From Candidatus Heimdallarchaeota archaeon (lineage in GTDB: Archaea; Asgardarchaeota; Heimdallarchaeia; Heimdallarchaeales; Heimdallarchaeaceae), in assembly GCA_021399345.1 (NCBI GenBank), contig JAAFKI010000030.1:1-28408 (forward strand): a stretch of DNA of 28,408 bases, given 5' to 3'. Position numbers and translations under genes: made by a program. Each line of letters opens with the position of its first letter. The first letter of the stretch is position 1. This document shows, piece after piece, positions 110-23,230 of this stretch. A model generated the notes under the pieces. That model saw only the letters and a list, made by a program, of their open reading frames with translations. It did not search any database and had not been told where the DNA came from.

Positions 110-790
110 TCAGTCTGTTTCATCTTGACAAAAAAGTGGTTCTGACCCCATCAAATGACCATCTTCACTTTTTGTGGAAAGATACTTTACATTATAGACA
201 TTAGGTGTAATGGCAATAGGAATTCTATCAATGACTTCTATATTGCTTCCACATAGTTCTGCTACTTTTTTTGGATTATTAGTTAGAAGCTTAACACATT
301 TAACATGTAAAGCTTGTAGGATATCAACTGCTACAAGATATGAACGTTCATCTGCTTTAAAACCTAAGACTTCATTTGCTTCATTTGTATCATATCCGAT
401 CTCTTGAAGTGTATATGCTTTAAGTTTATTAAACAAACCAATCCCTCTTCCTTCTTGACGGAGATAGATTAGAATGCCATGTTTTTGTTGTGAAAGATAA
501 TTTAATGCAAATTCCAGCTGTTCTCTACAATCACATCGCAGTGATGTAAATGCATCACCTGTAAGACACTCTGAATGAATGCGTATTGGAACATCCTCCT
601 TTCCAACTGGATTTCCTTTAACGATTACAGCATGTTCCTTCATGTCTCTTAAACTTAAAAGACCTATAATTTCAAATTCTCCAAATTGAGTGGGTAATTT
701 GGCAATAGATCCAAAATGGATTAGTTCTGTGTCTTTAAGCTTTAGCTCTAATATTTTAGATCTGATTTTTTTCTCGATATCTTCGGGCAA
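110..790 (-). CDS. ribA: GTP cyclohydrolase II
   Basis: Motifs RIHSECLTGD, CDC (Zn ligands), YLRQEGRGIGL, LLTNNP and YLxTK; TTG start. Confidence 0.93.
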   Translation of the reverse strand: MPEDIEKKIRSKILELKLKDTELIHFGSIAKLPTQFGEFEIIGLLSLRDMKEHAVIVKGNPVGKEDVPIRIHSECLTGDAFTSLRCDCREQLEFALNYLSQQKHGILIYLRQEGRGIGLFNKLKAYTLQEIGYDTNEANEVLGFKADERSYLVAVDILQALHVKCVKLLTNNPKKVAELCGSNIEVIDRIPIAITPNVYNVKYLSTKSEDGHLMGSEPLFCQDETD

Positions 791-845
791 TCTAATTCCT
801 CACATTTTAGTACTATTTGAATTGCTTTTGAATGTTGATGTTTTA

Positions 846-1139
846 CTAGTAAATTATTTTAAAATAAGACAAATCTCCTTTAGCTTGTTCCCATTTAACT
901 TGTATATCGTAAACTTTAGCTGAAGGCGGACCTTGTTTAGCAAAAATAATTAGTCGATTCAGTCTCTCTTCAGTTCCTTCAGCAATTATTTCTACTGATC
1001 CATCCCTCATATTTCGTACTGTTCCTTTAAGCCCCAATTTCCCTGCTACATCTCTTGTTGTGGCTCTAAAAAAAACTCCTTGAACCATTCCTAATACTTT
1101 GATTTCTATTCTTTTTTCTTCTCCCATAATACACATCAA
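846..1139 (-). CDS. acyP: Acylphosphatase (true start probably ATG at 1136 or 1127)
   Basis: Signature motifs GxVQGVFFR and GxVRNxxDGSVE; GPP near the C-terminus; ~95 aa. Confidence 0.93.
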   Translation of the reverse strand: MMCIMGEEKRIEIKVLGMVQGVFFRATTRDVAGKLGLKGTVRNMRDGSVEIIAEGTEERLNRLIIFAKQGPPSAKVYDIQVKWEQAKGDLSYFKIIY

Positions 1140-1891
1140 CCAATCTTATTTAGTAAATTTTTAGTAAAATCTGGTAAGGTTTCCTCACAAGGCCCAAATA
1201 TAGAATAATCGCAATAATTCGAAATTGGCGTGGCTTCAATATTAAATTCTATGATCATAGAATTGTTTTGCTTTGCATAGATTGGTAAAGTGGATACCGG
1301 AGCAACAACACCAGAAGTTCCAATTACAAGCATCACATTTGATTGTGTCGTCCATTCAGTAGCCTTTTGCCATTTCTGGGAGTCTAAAGGTTCTCCAAAC
1401 CAAACAACATCTGGTCGAAGAAGATTAGTTTCACATTCTGGACATGATGGTAATTCCAGTTCTTTGTGTGCTTTTTTTTCATCATCCCATCTTTCTATGT
1501 AATCGCAACTTATGCATCTTGCATACCTGATTCTACCATGTATCTCTACAATATTTTTGGATCCCGCTATTTCATGTAAACCATCAACATTCTGAGTAAT
1601 AATTCCAATAGCAATTTTTTCTTCTTCTAATTCAGTGAGTGAATAATGGGCTGGATTTGGTTCAGATTCTAATAGGATTCTCATCCTTGCTCTATACCAC
1701 TCCCAAACAAGTTTTGGGTCTCTTGAAAACGCATAGGGTGTTGCTAACTCATCAGCTCTATAGTTGTTCCATAACCCATCTTCTCCTCTAAAAGTAGGCA
1801 TTCCTGAAGCTTTAGAGATCCCAGCACCAACTACAGAAACTATTGTTGGATTTAGATCAGCAACTTCATCTACCACTGAATTGATATTCAT
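1136..1891 (-). CDS. cobB: NAD-dependent protein deacylase, Sir2/CobB family (class III-like)
   Basis: GAGISxxSGxPTFRG, TQNVDGLH, catalytic HG, two CxxC pairs, RPDVVWFGE and GTSG; WYRAR matches the YxxR motif. Confidence 0.95.
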   Translation of the reverse strand: MNINSVVDEVADLNPTIVSVVGAGISKASGMPTFRGEDGLWNNYRADELATPYAFSRDPKLVWEWYRARMRILLESEPNPAHYSLTELEEEKIAIGIITQNVDGLHEIAGSKNIVEIHGRIRYARCISCDYIERWDDEKKAHKELELPSCPECETNLLRPDVVWFGEPLDSQKWQKATEWTTQSNVMLVIGTSGVVAPVSTLPIYAKQNNSMIIEFNIEATPISNYCDYSIFGPCEETLPDFTKNLLNKIG

Positions 1892-2002
1892 TATTGAAAT
1901 TAGGAACTACACAAATAAAAAAGTATAGGGAAAGTAGTTGCTTTGTAATGCTTCGTCGCACATTTCCTTATTATTAATCATCAAATTTGGTATTTGATAA
2001 GA

Positions 2003-3097
2003 TTATATGTTGAAACGTCTTTTCTTTCCAGTTACTTCTTGATATAGTTTATCAATGCTACTTGAATATTCAGGATAACGAGTGAAGGCAATTTTGAAAG
2101 CCATATCAATATCTGCTTCTTCCTTATTTGCAAATTGCTGCTTAGGATTTGTGGTTAAAGCATAATATTGGGAAATTATACTAGTGCCTGAATATCTTAT
2201 GATTTTTACAACTTCTCCTTCTAGACCTCGAATAGATGTATCTATAATATTTCTATGATCTTTACCTCCACCTTCAGCATCTTGTTGTAATTTCTGCAAT
2301 AACTGTTTGCTATATTCACTATCATCGCCGCCTTTAGCTTGTCCTGCTGTGAGATCGCAAACAACATTGTCTGGATAATCAGAAACTAAGTCAGCTGTTG
2401 CAAAGAGAACATCAAATTGATCTGGGGGGATATATTCTTTAGGAAATAATGAAACCAATAATTCTCTTCTGGGTTGAAAAGATTGTAATGATGATAAAAT
2501 TGGTTTAACCATTTCTTGATTACAAACAACAACTACTGGTTTTCCTATTAGAATAGCTTCAACCACCTTATCTTGACCTTTGTTAATCAGTCTCATAAAG
2601 AAATAAGGTGAAGTTTCTGATCTGATAATTTCTACGGTTTGAGCTGCTGCAGTCTCTTGTTTAGTCATAATTGAGGAAAGTTTAATGGACCAATCCCTTA
2701 TTCTTGTTTGAAGACCTTCATCTAGTTCAAAGCCTGGTTCATAGAGAATAAGACCAGCAAGTTGTTTCGCAATATTGGAACTATGATAGTTAAAAACTGG
2801 AACTTTGGTATAAAGCTGTGACTGTAATTCTTCTTGGATGATGTAAGTTAAACATGCCATAGTAATAGGTGATCTCTTACTTTTGCAGGGTATACCAAAG
2901 AAGAAGGAATAAGCAACTCCCCCAGTATCGTGAAGTGGCATAACTGCGCTCGCTTCTCTTAAAATATCAGTTCCTGCAGCCCCCGATAACATACGGATAG
3001 AAACTTTGTGAGAATCTTCTTCTGTTAGGTTATCGTGTTGTAAAACCTTCACTCCTACAGTATCATCAAATACACTAAAACAAATTTTTTGTTCCAT
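2003..3097 (-). CDS. Longin/uDENN + DENN-core protein, FLCN/SMCR8/NPRL2-like (eukaryotic signature protein)
   Basis: N-terminal ICFSVFDDTVG matches the uDENN beta1-F-x4-G pattern. VSIRMLS and AYSFFFGIPCKSKRSPITMACLTYI parallel the SMCR8/FLCN longin. AILIGKPVVVV resembles the cDENN strand motif. Recognised by eye. Confidence 0.7.
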   Translation of the reverse strand: MEQKICFSVFDDTVGVKVLQHDNLTEEDSHKVSIRMLSGAAGTDILREASAVMPLHDTGGVAYSFFFGIPCKSKRSPITMACLTYIIQEELQSQLYTKVPVFNYHSSNIAKQLAGLILYEPGFELDEGLQTRIRDWSIKLSSIMTKQETAAAQTVEIIRSETSPYFFMRLINKGQDKVVEAILIGKPVVVVCNQEMVKPILSSLQSFQPRRELLVSLFPKEYIPPDQFDVLFATADLVSDYPDNVVCDLTAGQAKGGDDSEYSKQLLQKLQQDAEGGGKDHRNIIDTSIRGLEGEVVKIIRYSGTSIISQYYALTTNPKQQFANKEEADIDMAFKIAFTRYPEYSSSIDKLYQEVTGKKRRFNI

Positions 3098-3232
3098 CTA
3101 AAAACACAACCTTATGCTTTCTCTTAAATGTTCTGTTGAGGGAAATAGAGCAACTCTAAAGATATCTAGACTTCTTGAGTAATGACAAGCGTATAGTTTT
3201 TAAATTGTTAATGATACCTAATCTACCTATCC

Positions 3233-3238
3233 GGTGAT
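3233..3238 (+). promoter_or_regulatory. Shine-Dalgarno-like GGTGAT upstream of the GTG start at 3243
   Basis: GGTGA is the typical archaeal ribosome-binding site core, here 5 nt before the start. Confidence 0.55.
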
Positions 3239-3242
3239 ATGA

Positions 3243-3563
3243 GTGGTAGATAATGGAGAAACGATAGAATCTATAGTCGAAAGACTAGGTCGAACCAAAC
3301 GCCTTATCCTCATAGAACTTGCCAAAGAATCTGTTGGATATAAGAAGTTATCAAAGAAACTTCGAATTGGTCTGGATACGATCAGATCCCACATCAAAAC
3401 TGGTAAGCATTCGAATTCCCTCACTCAATTAGGATTGATTCAACAAGAGGAAAGGGGTTGGTCAATTACCGAATCAGGCGAAAAAATATTGGAGATTTTG
3501 AAAAAAGATCCTGAATATTCTCCATTTTTCTTTGTGAACTCCACAATAGAAAATGAGGATTAG
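3243..3563 (+). CDS. Small winged helix-turn-helix DNA-binding protein, probable transcription regulator
   Basis: YKKLSKKLRIGLDTIRSHI is HTH-like; LxxLGLI...WSITESG is a typical wHTH wing; divergent from the DENN gene. Confidence 0.75.
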   Translation: MVDNGETIESIVERLGRTKRLILIELAKESVGYKKLSKKLRIGLDTIRSHIKTGKHSNSLTQLGLIQQEERGWSITESGEKILEILKKDPEYSPFFFVNSTIENED

Positions 3564-3566
3564 GAT

Positions 3567-3597
3567 GAAGAATCAAAATTCTCTTCTTTTTTCTTTT
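3567..3597. terminator. Short hairpin plus T-tract between the convergent HTH gene and lysS
   Basis: GAAGAATcaaaATTCTCTTC followed by TTTTTTCTTTT. Confidence 0.45.
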
Positions 3598-3601
3598 AAA
3601 G

Positions 3602-5236
3602 TTAAAAACAATCTAGGGCTTCCTTAACTAGTCTGGAGACCTCAGTCTTTCCCAAAACATCAATGAGTGTTCCTGCTCTAGGTCCTGATTTTTGTGCTAA
3701 CACTATTTGATATATTGATCTAAAGAAATTACCTGGTTTAATTTCCTTTTCCTTAGCTATCTCATAAAGATACTGAGTAATAGAATCTCCTTGATAATTC
3801 TCAGGAAGGTTTTGTAGAGCTATGTATAATTCTTTAATGACTGGTAAATCTAATGATTTCACAATATCACATTTTGGATTTTCAACTACACTGAATTTGA
3901 AGTTATTACTAGCGTAATTTTCTATCCAAAATTTTGCTCTTTGGATTCTATTTCTTAACAGCTGCAAATCTCTATTACTAATATTGAAAGGAATTATCTC
4001 TTTGGCTTTAAGAGTTTCAATAACCTGTTCTTCATCAAACAAATAAACTTGTAAGTATGTAACAAGCTGTCCATAATCCACCCTGATTGGCTTTTTTTCA
4101 GAAGGTTCTGCCATAAGAGCAAGTCCATAAGCTTTAACAGTTTTTTCCTTGGTTTTTTTATGTTCGATGTCCCTCTCTTGATAGTACAGTTCTTCCGCAA
4201 CATCATAGTCTGAAGCTACTCCCGGCACATCCATTTCAACTTTAAAATCAGTGTCTGTTCTAAGATTAGTTCTATATATTTTGTAAAGAAATACAGATGG
4301 ATCTAGTATGCTTGGAAATTTTGATACAGGCAAACCACTGCCTGTGCTCCCACTTAATTTCTTACCACCAAAGGTTAGAAAACCATGAGTAATTAACATG
4401 GGTAATTCGCTTTTTTCAAATATTCTCTCGTGAATTGCCAAAGATGAATCTATAGACCCCCCTGATACACCATGATCTTTACCTGAAGATTCAACAGTGA
4501 CTCCTAAGAAATCTTGTCTTGCAGCCCAGTCGAGTCGCCATTTAATTTTCCAGATTGTTTCTCCTAAAATTAAGGAGGACTTCTGTCCACATCCTCGTCT
4601 TTCTTTCTGGCAAAAGATTTCTACCTTGATTTTATCATCTATAAATTTATAATCAATGAGTTTTGGAGCAGATAGATTATTGCATTCAGGACATTGTATT
4701 AGAAAGAAATCTTCCATTTTTGAGCCGGTTATTTCTTCCGTTAATTCGTACATTTCTTCACTTTTCTCAAGAAACAATTTTGCATATTTGTCATATTTTC
4801 CTTCTTCATATAGTTTCGATGTAAGAATTGGATCAGGATTGACATCAAAATCATTCATTATAGCTAAAGCATCAGCGATGAAATGCTCTGCGTATGAATC
4901 ATGACAACCTAAAGGATCTGGTACTTCACAGATTGCATGTCCTAGATAGGGCTTCAGCAACTTACCATACTCTTTGAAGAATGCAGGTATTTTTTCAAAA
5001 GGATCCACATCATCTATATTGAGTAAATAATATGAATCTGCTCCTAAACTGATTAATTCTCTATGAATGGCTCTGCAAGTAACTGCTTCTTTGAAGTTTC
5101 CAATATGATAAAAACCAGATGGTGCCCATCCGGTAGCAACTACTTGTTTTTTTCCAAAAATCTCAATAGCCTCATTACTAACTACAGTAGCCCAGTGTTC
5201 ATATGATCTTTCTTCTGCTTCTTCTTGATGTGTCAT
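3602..5236 (-). CDS. lysS: Lysyl-tRNA synthetase, class I
   Basis: GWAPSGFYHIGN (HIGH motif), DDVDP, PDPxGCHxSYAEHF, KxxWRxDW, GKDH, KLSGSTG (KMSKS equivalent) and C-terminal GPR anticodon-binding domain. Confidence 0.95.
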   Translation of the reverse strand: MTHQEEAEERSYEHWATVVSNEAIEIFGKKQVVATGWAPSGFYHIGNFKEAVTCRAIHRELISLGADSYYLLNIDDVDPFEKIPAFFKEYGKLLKPYLGHAICEVPDPLGCHDSYAEHFIADALAIMNDFDVNPDPILTSKLYEEGKYDKYAKLFLEKSEEMYELTEEITGSKMEDFFLIQCPECNNLSAPKLIDYKFIDDKIKVEIFCQKERRGCGQKSSLILGETIWKIKWRLDWAARQDFLGVTVESSGKDHGVSGGSIDSSLAIHERIFEKSELPMLITHGFLTFGGKKLSGSTGSGLPVSKFPSILDPSVFLYKIYRTNLRTDTDFKVEMDVPGVASDYDVAEELYYQERDIEHKKTKEKTVKAYGLALMAEPSEKKPIRVDYGQLVTYLQVYLFDEEQVIETLKAKEIIPFNISNRDLQLLRNRIQRAKFWIENYASNNFKFSVVENPKCDIVKSLDLPVIKELYIALQNLPENYQGDSITQYLYEIAKEKEIKPGNFFRSIYQIVLAQKSGPRAGTLIDVLGKTEVSRLVKEALDCF

Positions 5237-5291
5237 GATTAAATCAACATCCCATTACCTAACTTAAAAATTATGGTTTCTGTTAATATAT

Positions 5292-6647
5292 CTAAGTAAC
5301 TTGTGAGTAAAGATCAAGAATCTTCGATTTCCATGCCTCATAACTTTCTGGCGTTGTGGGGTATGTTTCGCAGTGTTTAGCGATTGCTTTGCTTGTGCTT
5401 ATTGCTTTTCTCATCATCAACAGGAGTCCATATTTAGGAAAACATCTAACCACTCGACCTAAATAGTCCATGAATGATCTTTTTTTCATAATTCCTGCGG
5501 ATGTTAAATCTGATTGTTTAACCACTTTTCTTTTAAGTAGAAATTCTAGTTTTTCTGGACCTATTTTTTCTAAGACTATTGTTAGGATTCTATTTCTAGC
5601 ATGATCTGAACCAAATTCTTTCACGATTAAAAGATTATATTCCCATAGGTCTTTCAATTCAAATGAGTTCTGTTCAAGAGCATTACATGCCACTTCTCCT
5701 GCAAAGCTTCCTGCCATTAATGCAGGACCATGACCTTCAGCTGTTAGTGGGTCAGCATGAAAAGCTGCATCTCCTGCAACAATTAAACCATTACCTACCG
5801 CATTCCATAAAGGAGCCCTAATTGGTACTACATCTCCTCTCCCATCAATTGTTTTGTAAGTTCCTTTAGGGAAATATTTCTCTAAAGCGTTAAAATATAC
5901 TGACTTAACACTTTTGGTGGCGTGTTTTCCTTGTTTGATAAATCCTGTTCCACAATTCAAACGCTTTTTTCCTTCATCAAAGAACCAGATATATCCTGGT
6001 TCTGGTATATCTATTTCATATTGTAAAACTATTTTACCTTTTAAATCATGGTCGTGATTTAACTGTATTATTTCGCGATAACAAGGGGCAAAATCTGCTT
6101 TGGTAACCTTTTTGTTCAATTTTGGTTCATATTCTTGTGGTAAACCTGTTCTTACCACTGCCATAGTTCCACTGCAGTCAATTACCATTTTAGACAAAAT
6201 TTCTATGCTGTTATGTTCTGAATCTTTAATCAAAACTCCAGATACTTTGTTATCAATCACAAGTGGTTTTTTTACTCTGCATTGATCTTTTAAAATTACT
6301 CCAGATTTTATTGTTTCTTGAAGTAATCTTTGTCCGAACTTATGGCGATCAATCAAATAGCCTATTGCTGGAAAAGTAATATGGTTTTTGGGTAAAGCAG
6401 TTCTAAGAATTAAATCCTCAATTTGTGCTTTAATTTCTTCTTCTAGTGGGGGAGCAATAGAGAGTTTTTCCATAGCCTTAAGTACTGTTTTTTTTGAGAT
6501 AGCTTCGCCACACACTTTGTCTCCAATCTTCTCCCTTTTCTTCTTATCAAGAAGTAAAACATTATATCCCCTCTTTCGACAAATTAATGATGCAGCTACA
6601 CCTGCAGGACCTGCTCCAACAACTATTACTTCGTAAGAATCTTTCAT
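5292..6647 (-). CDS. Geranylgeranyl reductase family flavoprotein (digeranylgeranylglycerophospholipid reductase-like)
   Basis: FAD-binding VIVVGAGPAG, K-x-CGE, PGYIWFF (PxxYxWxF), and GDAA...PLTAEG. Confidence 0.85.
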   Translation of the reverse strand: MKDSYEVIVVGAGPAGVAASLICRKRGYNVLLLDKKKREKIGDKVCGEAISKKTVLKAMEKLSIAPPLEEEIKAQIEDLILRTALPKNHITFPAIGYLIDRHKFGQRLLQETIKSGVILKDQCRVKKPLVIDNKVSGVLIKDSEHNSIEILSKMVIDCSGTMAVVRTGLPQEYEPKLNKKVTKADFAPCYREIIQLNHDHDLKGKIVLQYEIDIPEPGYIWFFDEGKKRLNCGTGFIKQGKHATKSVKSVYFNALEKYFPKGTYKTIDGRGDVVPIRAPLWNAVGNGLIVAGDAAFHADPLTAEGHGPALMAGSFAGEVACNALEQNSFELKDLWEYNLLIVKEFGSDHARNRILTIVLEKIGPEKLEFLLKRKVVKQSDLTSAGIMKKRSFMDYLGRVVRCFPKYGLLLMMRKAISTSKAIAKHCETYPTTPESYEAWKSKILDLYSQVT

Positions 6648-6707: not shown

Positions 6708-8279
6708 CTAGATAGACTTGACAAGCTCTCTAGAGATTGATGATTCTTTGTCTAAAACTTCTTTTTCAGTTTTATCCCCAATGAAAACTTCGAACATCTC
6801 GAAAGTTGGTGGAGTGTCTCCTGCAACTTTCATTTCGACAGATGTAAATTTTCCAATAGGTGGAGGCTCTGTTATCCATGTTATAATCTTAGCTCCTGAA
6901 TCATCAATTTGTTCCATTATTTGTGAATTTTCTGGATCTCTTCCTACCACAGCATGGCTAACGGGGAATTTATCAGCTAGAGATATGATTTCATCAACAT
7001 CTCCTTTAATATTTTTAATCGTGTAATTAACAGTATACCCTATATCTCTTTCAGAGGATTTGATGAATTTAGCTATCTTGAAAATTGTTTTTCCTTCTTT
7101 ATCTTGAACGAGTTTCTTTCCTCTGAATAGGAATGGAAAATAATCAATTTTATAGGATTTATCTAAAGACTGATTAGCTGGAACATTCTTATGTTTCCAT
7201 CTTACAATAGTTCCCTTCAGTTTAACTTTTTCAATTACTGCATTTGGAGGAAGTGCTTCAGGATTTGTTTTTAAGACGTCAAATTCTGGAGGAATCTCAT
7301 CTATAATATGTAATTCCTGTAGCTGACGATTATGAATGTTAAGATATTTAATACTGGAAGAAAATTCTAAACCTGATAGAGAAATGTCTTCAAATGAATT
7401 AAGAACTGCAATTACTTCATTTTGAATTATCTCTAAAATTGTTCGATTTATTCTCTTAGATAATTTGTATTTGATTTCAACTTCTTGGTCTGGCTGAATT
7501 TCTGGAATCTCCCAAGTAATTTCCAAAACCTTTTCTTCTTTCTCTTTTGATGGTTCACTTTCTAGATCGACAATTTCCATATTATTTATAGCAAAACAAT
7601 AAGGTATCTCATCTATGACTTTAATTTCTGTGATAGCTTCTTTGTGATTATTTATCAGACTTGAAATCAGAGTTGCATCCTTAAGAGTTTCTCCAGCCCC
7701 TAATGAGTTTTCTTTTTCAGTGGTTTCAATTTCACCGCTTGCCAATTTATACTGTATTCGACTTTTTACTGTTTTTGGTATTTGATATTTATTATCTTCT
7801 ATTAACTTTTGAAGAAGTTCATCTCTGAAGTAATCATCTTCTGGAAGTTTTTTAATTGTAATTTCGTGCCCAATTATTTTGCTGTCTTCTACAGTATCAA
7901 AAGCTTTTTCGAAATTTTCAGTACTCACTTCTTTAGTTTCCGTAATTAGTTCTTCTAAATCTTCAGAAAATAGCTCATCTGATCTTAAAAGCCGTAAAAG
8001 TAAATTGTAATCACCAAGAATGCCTGTTTCTGATAAATATTCTTCGATCCATCGAGCTACTCTTGTTTCATGAGGTGCTAAAATAGTTGACCAGAATTCA
8101 TTTACGGTATTTACTATCTCTAGAAGATTCCTGCATTCTTTTTCATTTATCAAACCATGAGTATCATAAAACGAGACTATACCGCTCATAGAGGTACCAA
8201 AAACATTTGTATAAGGATCAATTTTAATAAAGTATCTAGTTGAACCCCAAATTGATTTTTGTTCAACCATTTTAATCAA
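6708..8279 (-). CDS. Hypothetical cytoplasmic protein with three C-terminal DUF11/TRAP-beta-like beta-sandwich repeats
   Basis: Three copies of (I/L)xD(E/K)(I/F)P ... W ...; no signal peptide or TM segment; start overlaps the upstream gene (8272-8279). Confidence 0.55.
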   Translation of the reverse strand: MIKMVEQKSIWGSTRYFIKIDPYTNVFGTSMSGIVSFYDTHGLINEKECRNLLEIVNTVNEFWSTILAPHETRVARWIEEYLSETGILGDYNLLLRLLRSDELFSEDLEELITETKEVSTENFEKAFDTVEDSKIIGHEITIKKLPEDDYFRDELLQKLIEDNKYQIPKTVKSRIQYKLASGEIETTEKENSLGAGETLKDATLISSLINNHKEAITEIKVIDEIPYCFAINNMEIVDLESEPSKEKEEKVLEITWEIPEIQPDQEVEIKYKLSKRINRTILEIIQNEVIAVLNSFEDISLSGLEFSSSIKYLNIHNRQLQELHIIDEIPPEFDVLKTNPEALPPNAVIEKVKLKGTIVRWKHKNVPANQSLDKSYKIDYFPFLFRGKKLVQDKEGKTIFKIAKFIKSSERDIGYTVNYTIKNIKGDVDEIISLADKFPVSHAVVGRDPENSQIMEQIDDSGAKIITWITEPPPIGKFTSVEMKVAGDTPPTFEMFEVFIGDKTEKEVLDKESSISRELVKSI

Positions 8280-8898
8280 CCCTCACTGTTTCTTGAATAG
8301 AAATAACTTCATATTCAACAAGCTTTTCAGTAGAAATTTCGAGCTTCTCAGTTTTTCCGCTCTTGTGATTTAGTATTGCTACAGAGAAAGTTCCTTCAGG
8401 CAAAAAATTATGTACATATCTCCTTACTAGTGAGACATTTTCAAACATTGTACTAGGACTAGCTGGTATTTGATCTAAGTCCCCAAAAATATCCATTTTG
8501 TGAATACTTATGATTTCTCTATTGCTTTTTGTCTCACTCCTTCTTTCAAATATTGTTCTAACAGTATCTAGATGGAAACCTGAAAGTTTCTTACTTATTG
8601 ACTCTTTAAAAACTTCTTCTGCTTTCTCAAGATCTTCCAGCAAAAGATATCTACTTATTAGCTTACTATATGCATAGGATTGATTATCTTGATCGTCAAG
8701 ATTTTCCATTGTTTCTGCAACGAAGTGCCATAAGATAACAGATTCAATAAACTGGTCGTTTTCTTCTAGCTTTTTAATCCCTTTTTCAATGAATTTCAGA
8801 AAGTCATCAGGAGATTTGTTAGCTAGTAGGTCTTTTCCTTCTCTAATCATTTTTTGTACATCATCATCTGCACTCAATATAGACCACTTTCCAGTCAA
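8272..8898 (-). CDS. Hypothetical protein with a TPR-like helical N-terminal half
   Basis: Amphipathic helical hairpins (AYSKLISRYLLLEDLEKAEEVF); TTG start; translationally coupled to the 523-aa gene. Confidence 0.55.
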   Translation of the reverse strand: MTGKWSILSADDDVQKMIREGKDLLANKSPDDFLKFIEKGIKKLEENDQFIESVILWHFVAETMENLDDQDNQSYAYSKLISRYLLLEDLEKAEEVFKESISKKLSGFHLDTVRTIFERRSETKSNREIISIHKMDIFGDLDQIPASPSTMFENVSLVRRYVHNFLPEGTFSVAILNHKSGKTEKLEISTEKLVEYEVISIQETVRVD

Positions 8899-8986
8899 AC
8901 AATTTACAATTGTATATTTTGAGAACTTCTTATTTAAACTATATCCTAGTATTCAGTCAAATTTCATACAAAATTATATTGAAAAA

Positions 8987-9002
8987 ATAGAATATATTCT
9001 AT
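8987..9002. promoter_or_regulatory. Perfect 16-bp palindrome ATAGAATATATTCTAT in a divergent intergenic region, candidate operator
   Basis: Sequence equals its own reverse complement; lies midway between the divergent starts at 8898 and 9072. Confidence 0.4.
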
Positions 9003-9071
9003 CTCTCAAAAAACCCATAACAAAAAAGACTGATTCGATAAAGTTAAAAGAATACTCTTTTTTTTGTAGTT

Positions 9072-10094
9072 ATGGCTGAAATTGAAAGCAGAAATTTTTG
9101 CGCATTCCATTTCCACAATGATTCCGATGGAGAATGTTCAAACTGTGGATTAGCAATATGTAATCTTGACCAACAATATGACTTACAAGCTAACAGACAA
9201 TGTCAAATATGTTTTAATTTAACAAGAGCTAAGAAGATTGCAAGATATATACAATTTGGTTTGTGGGGTGCAATAATTTTGCTTGTTGTAATGTTATGGT
9301 TATTACTAAAAGAGAGTGGAAATACTTTTTATGCTTTCCTTCCAGTTCTTTTGCTTTTAGTCGTTCCATATCTTCTCCGTCCTGTTCTGATGAAATTGTA
9401 TTTTAGAGATTTGGCGCCAATTGAGTCAATATTGCCTATCCTTCGTTATTTTGAAGGTACTGGAAATAAGGATCATTACAAGCTTTTCTTGAGATTTTTA
9501 GGCAAATTAACTGAAGAAGATATTAAAACTATCCACAAACCATTATATGATTATTTAATTCCTGCTCTCGCATTTAATTATTCCAAGTTACCTGAAGGTT
9601 GGGAAGAAGATTTGACTGAAGGTCTTCAAATTTCTAAGGAAAGATTTATCGAACTTATGGTGAAGGATTATCGCACCATCTTGATTCAAACTGCTGTTCA
9701 TAATGCTCAGTCCAATATGGCCCTCTTCATTTTCTACTTGAGTGAAACAGCTTCTGATAAAGAGCTCATTAAAGAATACATCATTGAAATTACATCTAAA
9801 GACGTTTTGAAGTTAAATGAAGAAGAAGTAAATATTATTTATAAACATCTTTTAGAAGATTTGTATCTCTATGAGGAGCGATTTCTTGAACTCTGTGATG
9901 AATTGGAACTTAAAAAACAAAAAGATTTACTTATTCAACTTATAGAAAGATTTGATCCCCCTCCCGTACCAAAGAATCAGATTGAAGCTGTTATGTCTTC
10001 AGACCAACTTAGGGAGAAAAGAAGAAAGGAAAAGGAATTAGCTGAAAATCCAATCCCTCTAGAAATCGAGCAAAAAACTGAGGAAACTCAGTAA
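9072..10094 (+). CDS. Membrane protein: B-box-like zinc finger, 2 TM helices and a helical C-terminal domain
   Basis: CxxH-x8-CxxC-x4-CxxD...CxxC at the N-terminus; hydrophobic stretches at about aa 59-78 and 86-103. Confidence 0.7.
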   Translation: MAEIESRNFCAFHFHNDSDGECSNCGLAICNLDQQYDLQANRQCQICFNLTRAKKIARYIQFGLWGAIILLVVMLWLLLKESGNTFYAFLPVLLLLVVPYLLRPVLMKLYFRDLAPIESILPILRYFEGTGNKDHYKLFLRFLGKLTEEDIKTIHKPLYDYLIPALAFNYSKLPEGWEEDLTEGLQISKERFIELMVKDYRTILIQTAVHNAQSNMALFIFYLSETASDKELIKEYIIEITSKDVLKLNEEEVNIIYKHLLEDLYLYEERFLELCDELELKKQKDLLIQLIERFDPPPVPKNQIEAVMSSDQLREKRRKEKELAENPIPLEIEQKTEETQ

Positions 10095-13676: not shown

Positions 13677-16451
13677 ATGATTCAGTTAGATATTAGAATT
13701 CTTGTTCCCCTCATTTCAATTCTTTCATCTGGATCGCTAATCGTAGAAATAGTTAAGAAAAGAATATTGAAACTGAAAACATCAGATTCTTTTGCTGAAA
13801 ATCTTGTTGAATCTTTAGTTGTGGGAACTATTGTTTTAGTTGTTCCAATGTTGATAATTGCTTGGGTCGCTAATAAAACAAATAACATCCTTATTCTAGA
13901 GCGATTTGTTTATGTTTACCTGGCTATTGGATTACTTTATTTAATTTACAAAATATACGTCTGGGTTAGGAAAAAATTACCAATACTTGTTTTGTCTGGA
14001 AGAAAAAGATTAACTCAATCAATGGATCTACTTCTAAAAATTATAATAATCCTGATGGTACTTTTCTATGCATTTCAAGTACTTGTGTACCCCTTTAAGG
14101 GATGGGATTTTTTGCATTTTTATTTACCAAATTCTTTCAGAATCTTTGTTACTGGTCAATTAAGTTCAATTAATGAATTAACATTTTTTCCCCAATTCAA
14201 ACCCCCAATGAATATATTGCTTTTTGCATATACGTTTTTTGTAACACAATCTGAAATGATTCAGTTCATTCCAATATTATATTTAGCAGGTACTGCTTAT
14301 TTTTGTTATAAAATATCCAAGATAATGGGTTTATCAAACAAAACTGCTCTTTTTGCCTCAATTGCCTTTCTAGCTACTCCTCTTACTTATTTTCTTGTGT
14401 ATGAATATACATATTATCAAGAGATGTATATACTCTTTTTTACTACTGGAGCTTTTTATTATTACAAACGTTTTCTGGGTACAGACAAAAGTAAAGAGCA
14501 GCTGTATTTTGCTATTTTGACGTCATTGAGTCTTGGTGGCTGTAGTTTAAGTAAACTGAGCGGTTTTATTATTCCTATTGTTTTATTTGTTGCAATGCCT
14601 TCTGATAAAATTGGTAAGGTTCTGCGGGTTATAATTATCGTAGGTTTAGCGAGTCAACTGATAAGAAAATCAATATTTGAGATTTACTTAGGTACAGGGA
14701 TTCTTATAGGATTACTTGCGATATATTGCATTTATCTTGTTATTAGTAGTAAGAGTTTACTGTTTTCTGCTAAGCGATGGATTTATACCTTAGGTATTTT
14801 TGTATTCCCTCTTGCTATTGTAGTATTATGGATTTTTTACATGCTAACAATTCCTGGCGTAGAAAATTATCTCGTTGATCTATTTGTGAATCTAAGATTC
14901 TCTAAATTAAGTTTATCTTGGCCTGGAATTGCCTTACCTGATACTGTAACTTATCTAGAAAACGCTCATACAGCATCCTTCATATCCTCTTCATTCTCAT
15001 TTTTAATAGCAGCAATGTTTGCTGGTACATGGATGATTTTTAAGCTTGTAGGCTTTGTTAGTTCAAATAAGAAAAACAATGATCTTGTGCTTTGGATAAT
15101 TTTCTTCCTTATTATCTGGCAAGGATTCTTTGCTATGGGATCAGTTAGATACCTTACCCCAATCCTAGTTCCTTTAGCAATTATTTTTGCAATCGGATTT
15201 GAATCAGTTGTTGAGTTCTTCAATAAAAGAGATGGAAAAAATAGGGATGGATTATTAGCTTACTTGTTCATCACAGCAAGTGCTTATCTCTTCCTTTATC
15301 CAATTTTACCTCTAGAGACTGTCTTTGAAAACTTTCATCTACGCTGGTATTATGCTCATACAAGACTGTTGTCTTTATTTGGATATATTCTATTATTTAA
15401 TTTAGTAACATTTCTTTTAATCTGGAAAGAGAAAAATTTCAAGTTAGGTTATTCACAAATCTATAATAAAAAATTCAATGTTAGAAAGATTCTTTCAGGA
15501 ATTTTAATTTTTGTAGTTGTTTCTGTTCCTTTTGCTGGCCAAGTAGCTCTTCTTGCTTCTGTTGGTTTTAGTTTGAAAGATTTTGAAAGCACATATAGTT
15601 ATGATTATAGAGAATCATTTCAAGAGCTAATAGATGCCATTAATAGACTTGGTTACACAGATAACCAAATTATTCTCTCAGTGAATACGCCAGGTTTAGA
15701 ATATTATTCATCTCAACCGATAATTGATCTCTATATGCTAGGTTTTCTAAGTGAGACGGGTTTATCAGACTCATCTGTTCCACTTTGGAAATCAAATATT
15801 ACAAGAAATCTAGAGTTTTTTGAGAAATATGGAGTAACCATTTTTGTAGCTCTAAATAGTTCTAATGATTGGTTTCCAGCATACTTGGAAGAATTTTACT
15901 GGAATTATTTTATCTTTAGATTTCTTCATAATAATGAATATTTCACTTATCGATTTGCAAACGAAGAATTCATGTTATTTACTATCATTAAATTCGAAGA
16001 TTTTATTGGACCTGTTGATATAGAATTGAAAGGAAATTCTTCTAAATCTAGTCTTCTTGCATATGCACCATTATCGATAGATATAACTGACGAAAATGCT
16101 TCAATTGAAGCATTATTAGATTTAACTGCAATTCAAACCAGTCAACCAATTTCGATTGATATTTCTACACGGTATACTCTCTCAACCAACAATACAATAA
16201 TAGTAGCTAATAGCAATTTTGTATTTAACAAGCCCATCGATGAAGCATTTACTTCCTTATCTCTACTGAACTTGCCTCAGCAATCAATATTCATTCATGA
16301 TATAAGCATAACAATTAATTATAATGATTTAGGGGGATTTCCACAGACTGCTATCCACAACTTAGATCCTATGTTTGGGAATTCAGTAAACATTACTTGG
16401 ACAAGCAACTCATGGTTTTATGAAGGATATTATGGTTTTCAATTCATCTAA
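13677..16451 (+). CDS. Large polytopic membrane protein, probable GT-C fold (PMT/ArnT-like) glycosyltransferase with a C-terminal soluble domain
   Basis: Many TM helices; WDxxxxY acidic motif in an early loop, KPP, ATP, SKLSG and VRYLTP are GT-C-like patterns; C-terminal ~290 aa are hydrophilic with several N-x-S/T sequons. Confidence 0.6.
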   Translation: MIQLDIRILVPLISILSSGSLIVEIVKKRILKLKTSDSFAENLVESLVVGTIVLVVPMLIIAWVANKTNNILILERFVYVYLAIGLLYLIYKIYVWVRKKLPILVLSGRKRLTQSMDLLLKIIIILMVLFYAFQVLVYPFKGWDFLHFYLPNSFRIFVTGQLSSINELTFFPQFKPPMNILLFAYTFFVTQSEMIQFIPILYLAGTAYFCYKISKIMGLSNKTALFASIAFLATPLTYFLVYEYTYYQEMYILFFTTGAFYYYKRFLGTDKSKEQLYFAILTSLSLGGCSLSKLSGFIIPIVLFVAMPSDKIGKVLRVIIIVGLASQLIRKSIFEIYLGTGILIGLLAIYCIYLVISSKSLLFSAKRWIYTLGIFVFPLAIVVLWIFYMLTIPGVENYLVDLFVNLRFSKLSLSWPGIALPDTVTYLENAHTASFISSSFSFLIAAMFAGTWMIFKLVGFVSSNKKNNDLVLWIIFFLIIWQGFFAMGSVRYLTPILVPLAIIFAIGFESVVEFFNKRDGKNRDGLLAYLFITASAYLFLYPILPLETVFENFHLRWYYAHTRLLSLFGYILLFNLVTFLLIWKEKNFKLGYSQIYNKKFNVRKILSGILIFVVVSVPFAGQVALLASVGFSLKDFESTYSYDYRESFQELIDAINRLGYTDNQIILSVNTPGLEYYSSQPIIDLYMLGFLSETGLSDSSVPLWKSNITRNLEFFEKYGVTIFVALNSSNDWFPAYLEEFYWNYFIFRFLHNNEYFTYRFANEEFMLFTIIKFEDFIGPVDIELKGNSSKSSLLAYAPLSIDITDENASIEALLDLTAIQTSQPISIDISTRYTLSTNNTIIVANSNFVFNKPIDEAFTSLSLLNLPQQSIFIHDISITINYNDLGGFPQTAIHNLDPMFGNSVNITWTSNSWFYEGYYGFQFI

Positions 16452-21907: not shown

Positions 21908-23230
21908 TCACGTTACTATTGGGTAGAGACCGAAGAACACTAATCTTTGAAGAATTAATGTGATGACTATTGCAACAGCAACTGCAAAAATAGATGGTAT
22001 TCGAGTTTTTGAAGGGGTTACTCTGTTTACCCCTATACCTAAGAATAGCAAATACCCATATAGGAATATGTTAAGAGGGATTCTGGCAAGCAGTTGAAAC
22101 TTTATTTCACGTTGTTCGACTCCAAAACTAGAACTAGTTGGGTTAAATCCAATCGCTTCTAAATATTTTACACCACCGAAAACATAGCCTATCATAAGTA
22201 TGAAAACAGCAATAGAAGAGATAAAAACTGCATTACGGTAGATTTTCCACCACTTCTTTTCTCCCAAAAGTAGTGAATAAATGAGTGGAAAAATAAAAAC
22301 CCATGTAAACCATGCAAAAATCCCAATAAGCATCTGATCTCCAATATCACTTGTTGCAAAATTTGTAAAATCAAACTCCTCAATTAAACCACCTACCAAC
22401 CCTCCTGGAAAGAGAGGATAGACCGTTAGTTCCGAGAAGAAACCTCCCGCGAAAAGCATAAAACTTACGTACACGAGAAAAGATGTTAGAATATTGATTA
22501 GGAAGTAATTAGGTAACAGTTCAGAGTAACTTGCTCTTGTTGGTCTAGTCAAATAATCTTTTGCAAATCTGAAAGTATCCTTCACATAAGTAAATTTGAA
22601 AAGCAGATAGATTGCTATCGCGGGAATAGCTATAACTGCTATAAGAAATAGGATATTAAGCGTCAGTGCTGCAGGATTCGACAAAGAGCCAAGTAAATCA
22701 TCCCAGATGAAAGTTCTTATGTCAAAATCCGTCATTCCCTTAAACGGTGGGGACCCGAAAATAAGCAGAGAATACCAACACAAAGTTAATGCTACAAAAA
22801 ATGTTGCTAAATAGTCCCTTATTCTGAATTTCCTTTTTTGAGTGTCAAGATACCATAGTTTCTTGTAAATTATTTCTGTAGCATCAGCTTCAAAATCAGT
22901 TAATACTAATCCATCTACTCTTACTTCACCATATTTTTCATAGAATCTCTTAGCAATCAAATCTAGTAATTCTTGGGTGTCTTTTGTATCCATTCTTTTA
23001 TCCACTGATATAACAAACAATAAATCGTTCTCCTCTTCTTGAAAAAGTATTCTTGAAGTTACCATTTCAAATTCAGAAATTCTTTCCTTTTGGGTTTCTG
23101 TTGCCATTGAATAAATTGCGCTCATTAACCCGCCTGTTAGTGCAACATCAACAGCTTCTTCTGTTTTTTCGAATTCTTGACTATAGAAAATTTGACCATA
23201 AGTTGTTAGAATAAGTAGATGCTTAATCAA
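21908..23230 (-). CDS. Longin-domain protein fused to about 7 TM helices
   Basis: MIKHLLILTTYGQIFYSQEF...GGLMSAI...LLFVI...LLDLIAKRFYEKY follows the beta-beta-alpha-beta-beta-beta-alpha-alpha longin pattern; about seven hydrophobic segments after aa ~140; TTG start. Confidence 0.75.
   Translation of the reverse strand: MIKHLLILTTYGQIFYSQEFEKTEEAVDVALTGGLMSAIYSMATETQKERISEFEMVTSRILFQEEENDLLFVISVDKRMDTKDTQELLDLIAKRFYEKYGEVRVDGLVLTDFEADATEIIYKKLWYLDTQKRKFRIRDYLATFFVALTLCWYSLLIFGSPPFKGMTDFDIRTFIWDDLLGSLSNPAALTLNILFLIAVIAIPAIAIYLLFKFTYVKDTFRFAKDYLTRPTRASYSELLPNYFLINILTSFLVYVSFMLFAGGFFSELTVYPLFPGGLVGGLIEEFDFTNFATSDIGDQMLIGIFAWFTWVFIFPLIYSLLLGEKKWWKIYRNAVFISSIAVFILMIGYVFGGVKYLEAIGFNPTSSSFGVEQREIKFQLLARIPLNIFLYGYLLFLGIGVNRVTPSKTRIPSIFAVAVAIVITLILQRLVFFGLYPIVT

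Follow-up and report, generated by a model that had tools for sequence, protein, structure and literature searches.

The stretch of DNA analysed here (the window, 28,408 nucleotides; contig JAAFKI010000030.1 of a Candidatus Heimdallarchaeota archaeon) carries on its reverse strand an uninterrupted open reading frame (ORF), 2003..3097, which starts with ATG and encodes a product of 364 amino acids (aa). An initial annotation had described the product as a compact archaeal protein of the folliculin (FLCN)/SMCR8 type, with a longin and a DENN domain, in which R75 retains the place of the arginine finger used by GTPase-activating proteins (GAPs) of that type. The ORF, the R75 codon at 2875-2873 (by arithmetic from the start at 3097) and both quoted peptides were all reproduced in the translation, in which AYSFFFGIPCKSK-R-SPITMACLTYI is residues 62-86 and AILIGKPVVVV is residues 181-191. 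We think that this is a soluble longin-DENN protein of the folliculin/SMCR8/C9orf72 class and a regulator of a small GTPase. The features on which the argument turns are listed below; domain and strand limits are those of an AlphaFold2 (AF2) model with a predicted local distance difference test score (pLDDT) of 89.2.

2003..3097, minus strand: the whole longin-DENN gene, 364 aa (ORF and translation, 33 relatives, 57 cluster representatives, AF2 model)
2738..3097, minus strand: longin domain, about residues 1-120 (strands and helices of the AF2 model)
3050..3070, minus strand: F10-D11-x3-G15-V16 hairpin before strand 2, the counterpart of the WD...GP or GP region, with Val for Pro
2936..2953, minus strand: strand 3, residues 49-54, centre of a predicted dimer interface (closest pairs 51-51, 51-52 and 52-52)
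2873..2875, minus strand: codon of R75, candidate arginine finger in the loop between longin strands 4 and 5 (AF2 model and profile)
2030..2617, minus strand: DENN domain (core and downstream helices), about residues 161-356
2525..2557, minus strand: AILIGKPVVVV, end of a cDENN helix and core strand (strand 188-191 in the AF2 model, SMCR8 alignment)
2411..2413, minus strand: codon of D229, the residue with the highest conservation in the family (D in 35 of 38 members)

The observed ORF and motif are confirmed to be more than chance, because a protein sequence search gave 33 relatives at E <= 0.001 and an exhaustive search gave 57 cluster representatives at the same threshold, 18 of them at E <= 1e-10. 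Nearly all of the 33 are 65-95% identical and of the same length; the named ones are 'hypothetical protein' entries of Heimdallarchaeaceae or Heimdallarchaeota assemblies, and one Asgard protein is 27% identical. The ATG agrees with the starts of the orthologues, a few of which seem longer through upstream read-through. Orthologues were located in 30 loci of named Heimdallarchaeota assemblies, including two closed Candidatus Heimdallarchaeum genomes. Across the phylum, the family profile has matches in 175 of the 301 genomes sampled, and in all 28 from the source genome's own family. Among the matches listed, those that are full-length and high-scoring (E < 1e-60) all fall in families of the same class, with at most 8 matches per genome; genomes of the source genus usually have 3-5, and two of the most incomplete assemblies have 1. 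A 38-sequence profile run against a collection of 5.8 billion proteins returned 36, all the named ones being from Asgard archaea and none having a eukaryotic name. Counts for the wide family below refer to this diverse 38-sequence alignment, those for the orthologue group to a closer alignment and to related loci.

The AF2 model was built from the 38-sequence alignment; its predicted template modelling score is 0.76 and no segment has a pLDDT below 50. The N-terminal part has the longin fold of two strands (4-11 and 15-22), a helix (26-40), three strands (49-55, 60-71 and 78-88) and helices (89-116). The same chain continues with a DENN domain, an alpha/beta core with helices after it (residues 161-356). 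A Foldseek search of the PDB returned 23 hits at E <= 0.001, and ranks 1-14 were all longin-DENN chains; the top chains were C9orf72 (7mge_C, 2.8e-9), DENND10, FLCN (6nzd_H, 2.6e-8), FNIP2, DENND1A/B and chains of the SMCR8 complex. The longin-plus-DENN architecture of the initial annotation is thus borne out by both the secondary structure and the fold search. A separate structural comparison gave the following scores and aligned lengths (with root-mean-square deviation, rmsd, in two cases).

Lokiarchaeal longin 8yqg_B: 17.1 over 142 (rmsd 2.4)
FLCN 6nzd_H: 16.4 over 313, both domains
Lst4 longin: 15.6 over 134
C9orf72 7o2w_A: 13.4 over 329
FLCN C-terminal domain 3v42_B: 12.8 over 171 (rmsd 3.5)
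DENND10: 12.1 over 181
DENND1A/B: 9.5-9.7 over 173-180
GATOR1 chains: 9-11 over about 130

Neighbours in a protein language model, which are independent of structure, pointed the same way, with a Heimdallarchaeota cluster at 0.94 (PF11704 on 23% of its members), then a eukaryotic C9orf72-like cluster at 0.93 and a Folliculin cluster at 0.91. The protein has no match to Folliculin (PF11704), Folliculin_C (PF16692) or C9orf72-like (PF15019) above the curated cut-off, and a PDB sequence search with the single protein gave E 0.41 or worse. Membership of the class therefore rests on the fold and on a profile match to SMCR8 (E 0.0014). Among the 38 relatives, the C9orf72-like model was matched by 5, Folliculin_C by 4 and Folliculin by 2 at E <= 0.1. 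Taken together, we regard the longin-DENN fold and homology to the folliculin/SMCR8/C9orf72 class as close to certain. Conservation in the DENN half is highest at D229 (35 of the 38 members), P187 (30), G257 (27) and G185 (25); that of D229, P187 and G257 points to a function of the DENN core for which none of the explanations discussed here accounts.

R75 follows the fourth longin strand (60-71) and precedes the fifth (78-88), so that its predicted place in the beta4-beta5 loop agrees with the model. The match to SMCR8 (6lt0_B) was obtained with a profile of the 16 Arg-bearing family members and consists of two collinear stretches. In the longin stretch the family arginine stands opposite SMCR8 residue 147 (counted from the printed alignment start at 121), with no gap from the preceding strand to the arginine; in the DENN stretch the G-K-P-V-V-V strand stands opposite a cDENN strand of SMCR8. 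Both stretches were reproduced by the 38-sequence profile. The gap-free spacing noticed in the initial annotation thus holds against SMCR8, the SMCR8 string given there is present in the alignment to the PDB chain, and the peptide called cDENN-like falls on the matching SMCR8 strand with both profiles. The protein accordingly has an arginine at the finger position of the longin hairpin. The initial annotation gives R78 as the finger of NPRL2. Arg147 of SMCR8 points at BeF3 in the complex with ARF1, and its mutation abolishes GAP activity (PMC8213707), while Arg164 of FLCN is the confirmed finger in the active FLCN complex (PMC9473554).

All 19 aligned relatives, one of them only 23% identical, and all 48 members of the orthologue group have R75. 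Of the 57 longin domains recovered at related loci, 55 have it; these are not all independent, since the two sets of loci overlap in genomes. In a quick IQ-TREE tree of all 38 rows, which has long branches, the clade that contains the longin-DENN protein has the arginine in 6 of 6 members and 100% support by the SH-like approximate likelihood ratio test (SH-aLRT).

The second element of a possible active site is the hairpin F10-D11-D12-T13-V14-G15-V16. The family consensus is F-S-x-F-D-x3-G-P, with D11 in 31 of the 38 sequences, G15 in 29 and proline at position 16 in 24; in a sister family of the class, all 7 members have both GP and the arginine. The most conserved positions of the longin half are D11, G15, P54 and F67, and R75 is not among them. 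According to PMC12290439, a GP motif precedes the second longin strand in SMCR8 (G68-P69), C9orf72 (G38-P39), FLCN and NPRL2 and is missing in FNIP2, NPRL3 and non-GAP longins. The motif adjoins the arginine finger, W33-D34 of C9orf72 is essential, and the GP proline has been proposed to be important for GAP activity (PMC12290439). The archaeal chain thus combines an SMCR8/FLCN-type arginine with a C9orf72-type aromatic-Asp pair and has a degenerate GP motif.

Prediction of a complex of two copies gave a score of 0.60 (runs 0.60, 0.75 and 0.60), compared with 0.00 for the best of three controls. In the benchmark for this score, 0.60 was reached by 20 of 30 proteins whose structures are pairs of one and the same chain and by 1 of 23 solved as monomers. 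Agreement between runs is at least 64% of contacts, with a partner pLDDT of 81 or more. The predicted interface is symmetric and purely longin-longin; it sets strand 3 against strand 3 (within residues 49-57) and includes helices 31-41 and 89-100, and R75 and G15 lie outside it. The longin-longin pairing that would build a GTPase platform is present in the prediction, which supports a symmetric longin-longin homodimer.

A mechanism can be proposed from these elements. Two chains would pair through their longin domains, strand 3 edge-to-edge, and so form a platform on which a GTPase could dock. R75, at the tip of the strand 4-5 hairpin and beside the F10-D11...G15 hairpin, would then enter the nucleotide pocket and speed GTP hydrolysis, and the longin-DENN protein would be an arginine-finger GAP. 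As clients, the Rag/Gtr-type GTPases of the genome would be likeliest, with Arf-like GTPases second. GTPase binding, GAP catalysis, the identity of the client and a link to the Rag/TORC1 pathway are the parts of this proposal that we infer. A homodimeric arginine-finger longin-DENN GAP is the best explanation overall, and we consider it evenly poised between right and wrong; for the arginine-finger mechanism taken separately, the chances are even or a little short of that. A more specific version, in which an undivided homodimeric longin-DENN GAP for an archaeal Rag-type GTPase, each chain with R75 and F10-D11...G15, would be ancestral to the FLCN-FNIP, SMCR8-C9orf72 and NPRL2-NPRL3 heterodimers, we think unlikely.

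A number of observations weigh against the arginine-finger GAP. On the side of class membership, Pfam and NCBIfam scans of the protein gave chance-level matches alone (a single one, E 0.14, in Pfam), and the relatives whose scores were inspected fall below the Pfam cut-offs (22.2 and 21.3 against 23.3; 23.1 against 27). The full-length Foldseek TM-scores are low (0.25-0.40, with large rmsd), as would fit a different mutual orientation of the longin and DENN domains. The longin stretch of the SMCR8 match is weak when taken alone (i-Evalue 43), so that the alignment is support and not proof, and FLCN, C9orf72, FNIP and NPRL2 are absent from the PDB chains reached at E <= 10 (14 with the 38-sequence profile and 9 with the 16-member profile). 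The equivalence of R75 to FLCN R164 is drawn from the loop position and the SMCR8 profile alignment, not from structural superposition. As to the arginine itself, another family of the class contributes two high-scoring relatives with E or N in its place, and in the wide family it occupies the aligned column in 13 of 38 sequences, or 15 of 38 with one column of slack. On the quick tree of the 38 rows, 8 changes are needed to explain its distribution, and well-supported branches force 4 or more of these. The conservation of R75 thus stands for the orthologue group and the 19 aligned relatives and fails for the wide family; the longin-DENN family thus mixes Arg-bearing and Arg-less members, like its eukaryotic counterparts. 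The GP motif is also incomplete, position 16 being T in 34, V in 10 and S in 4 members of the orthologue group. Finally, longin dimers have already been solved, and the success of the homodimer prediction may for that reason partly reflect the model's memory of known structures; the known eukaryotic longin GAP complexes are heterodimers. No gene for a GTPase, a roadblock protein or another partner lies near the longin-DENN gene or in the 30 orthologous loci.

An exchange or docking role is usual for DENN proteins and for most longin proteins. The longin-DENN protein could in this manner be a guanine nucleotide exchange factor (GEF) or a non-catalytic dock for a Rab-, Rag- or Arf-like GTPase, with R75 a binding or structural residue; we hold this to be possible, if on the unlikely side. 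It would fit the presence of the DENN-domain Rab GEFs DENND1A/B among the structural matches, the position of R75 outside the most conserved residues (D229, P187 and G257; D11, G15, P54 and F67), the repeated gain or loss of the arginine and the missing GP proline, and a GEF role has been put forward by Liu et al. for the Asgard DENN module. Against it stand the arginine at the position of SMCR8 R147, invariant in the orthologue group over 66-95% identity, and the predicted interface, which leaves the face with R75 free.

Returning to the homodimeric GAP, candidate clients and partners were sought in the source genome, which is 88.6% complete. It has 22 matches to the Gtr1_RagA model, which is unspecific, as E. 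coli and M. jannaschii also give matches. Three of the proteins score far better with Gtr1_RagA than with any other Pfam family (124, 109 and 92 bits, compared with 58, 50 and 36 for Arf); a fourth is ambiguous. The three Rag-type GTPases are encoded on contig C147 (194 aa) and contig C182 (one of 416 aa and one of 678 aa that includes a G domain). Three paralogues in the genome match the DENN half of the profile only and have differing roadblock- or longin-like N-terminal parts.

C59:1681-2691, plus strand: DENN paralogue, 336 aa
C180:1280-2698, minus strand: DENN paralogue, 472 aa
C78:338-1792, plus strand: DENN paralogue, 484 aa

There is no GTPase or roadblock gene directly beside any of the three, the nearest GTPase gene being an Arf-like one that lies some 2.7 kb away from the C59 copy. 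All three paralogues are candidates for a heterodimer with the longin-DENN protein. The longin-DENN protein might then be one half of a heterodimer of the FLCN-FNIP style, with the arginine on this chain and the second longin or roadblock face from one of the three paralogues, in which case the predicted homodimer would be an artefact of modelling. Each of the three eukaryotic longin GAPs pairs two paralogues in a heterodimer (PMC12290439, PMC8213707), and genomes of the genus usually have 3-5 matches. No paralogue is adjacent to the longin-DENN gene, however, the homodimer prediction passed its controls, and the Lokiarchaeal longin 8yqg was solved as a dimer according to its entry title. We find a heterodimer of this kind quite improbable.

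The longin-DENN gene has same-strand neighbours downstream for Sir2, acylphosphatase and GTP cyclohydrolase II, and upstream a divergent gene for a 106-aa winged-helix protein (3243..3563), a class I lysyl-tRNA synthetase gene and a geranylgeranyl-reductase-like gene. Of the 30 orthologous loci, almost all of those long enough to show it have this order (110..6647). A scaffold unrelated to GTPases and tied, for example, to Sir2, acylphosphatase or GTP cyclohydrolase II, whose order with the gene and the divergent winged-helix gene is so well kept, is very improbable, as the synteny may be inherited rather than functional (all 30 loci are from one family), a T-rich spacer of 111 bases separates the gene from Sir2, and every well-scoring full-length structural relative is a regulator of small GTPases. 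An A/T-rich TTTAA element lies 27-31 bases 5' of the ATG and a T-rich run follows the stop codon, which would fit a separate transcription unit for the longin-DENN gene. Among the 24 runs listed there was no RNA dataset containing the gene. Contigs of 150-380 bases from three libraries labelled metatranscriptomic or RNA-Seq, flagged as probably DNA, overlap it at 2361-2740 and 2855-3081 and also cover part of the winged-helix gene; no conclusion was drawn from them.

A link between a longin of this type and a GTPase class was found elsewhere in the genome. Contig C182 encodes a surface protein with one membrane helix and a cytoplasmic C-terminal longin; the contig edge cuts off the 5' end of its gene, so that 1187 aa is a minimum length. 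The longin is related to that of the longin-DENN protein (hhalign probability 95.4) and has GP and Arg-Gly-Gly. About 110 bases after this gene comes one for a Rag-type GTPase.

L005:1381-1992 (loci L005/L077): longin part of the C182 protein
C182:3674-5710, plus strand, and C182:5728-6978, minus strand: Rag-type GTPase genes, convergent

Longins of the C182 type occur in 42 of 71 genomes of the class, and in 17 of the 20 loci fetched, from two families of the class, they are next to a Rag-type GTPase gene. On gene order and sequence these genes look like a receptor-longin-Rag signalling module, of which no description was found in the accessible parts of the literature searched. No other genomic link between longins of this type and a class of GTPases was found, and the adjacency would bear on the longin-DENN protein only by analogy.

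Three further observations concern other ORFs. On the same contig as the longin-DENN gene, a 440-aa ORF (21908..23230, minus strand) has a weak match to the first longin of FUZ/MON1/HPS1 (PF19036, E 2.7e-4, 21.6 bits against a cut-off of 26.1) and may be a further longin-type GTPase regulator. A 109-aa ORF elsewhere in the genome (C143:34807-35136, plus strand) weakly matches the longin half (E 4e-4), has an F-D-E-E-I-G-P hairpin and may be a longin of this type that stands alone or is truncated. For ORFs of 523, 208, 340 and 924 aa (6708..10094 and 13677..16451) Pfam gave nothing at E <= 0.001; those of 523 and 208 aa are conserved beside the gene cluster in orthologous loci.

In nutrient signalling at the lysosome, Rag and Arf GTPases are turned off by folliculin, GATOR1 and the C9orf72 complex, all three of which are human disease genes. 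If a 364-aa homodimer does carry arginine-finger chemistry, this regulatory logic would be older than the eukaryotic cell, and the protein would be a small and tractable model for the mechanism of arginine-finger longin GAPs. Were the ancestral-homodimer version true, arginine-finger longin GAPs acting on Rag would predate eukaryotes and the GP proline would be dispensable. The present analysis adds a conserved full-length longin-DENN candidate, for which a dimer interface is predicted and clients from the same genome are short-listed, and a naturally occurring GP variant, together with residue-level checks and the scattered distribution of the arginine in the family.

Among known systems, the closest in architecture is FLCN, which with FNIP1/2 is the GAP for RagC/D (PDB 6nzd, 6ulg, 8dhb and 3v42). 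Both have a longin and a DENN domain in one chain and an arginine in the strand 4-5 hairpin, and their structural alignment begins at residue 2 in both. Phe10 of FLCN contacts RagC, and its loop 10-16 is the specificity loop (PMC9473554); F10 and G15 of the archaeal protein would correspond by ordinal position, not by residue-level alignment. Unlike FLCN, the archaeal protein has no long insertions in its 364 aa, has no Pfam Folliculin or Folliculin_C match, has GV for GP, and is only 12% identical in the structural alignment. The prediction gives it a second copy of itself as partner, where FLCN has FNIP, and a TORC1 context for it would be an extrapolation.

The SMCR8-C9orf72 CSW complex is the GAP for ARF1 (PDB 7mge, 6lt0, 7o2w and 6v4u). 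SMCR8 is the only solved eukaryotic chain reached by the sequence profile (E 0.0014), with the arginine opposite R147 and the cDENN strand aligned, and the F-D-x3-G spacing of the archaeal hairpin is that of W33-D34...G38-P39 in C9orf72 (residue numbers from PMC12290439). In contrast to that complex, both the SMCR8-type arginine and the C9orf72-type aromatic-Asp pair reside in one chain, of 364 aa compared with 937 aa for SMCR8, and no WDR41-type partner is known.

DENND1A/B, the Rab35 GEFs (6ekk and 3tw8), have a tripartite longin(uDENN)-cDENN-dDENN fold that the model resembles in the Foldseek comparison (E about 1e-7), but they are GEFs and have no arginine finger; they also have no GP motif (PMC12290439). 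The Lokiarchaeota Roadblock-Longin 8yqg was likewise reached by profile (E 0.0019-0.0037) and is a dimer by its entry title, but it has no DENN domain and no arginine in the aligned loop, which reads E-P-E-K.

In Asgard archaea, an FLCN-like domain organisation has already been reported from Heimdallarchaea, and a GTPase-regulatory (GEF) role has been proposed for Asgard DENN modules (Liu et al., bioRxiv 10.1101/2020.10.19.343400). The point singled out as notable in the initial annotation, a catalytic arginine in Asgard longins, was published in 2025: 'FLCN/SMCR8-type' longins, within a set of 15 Asgard proteins covered, have GP and the arginine finger in the same arrangement and are possible ArfR/Rag GAPs (PMC12290439, Traffic 2025). 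No experimental GAP assay of such an archaeal protein was found in the accessible parts of the literature searched. Compared with the published longins, which have GP, the orthologues described here have G-[T/V/S]. The arginine-finger hypothesis for Asgard longins in general is therefore already in print, and the longin-DENN protein is a well-supported, testable candidate for it.

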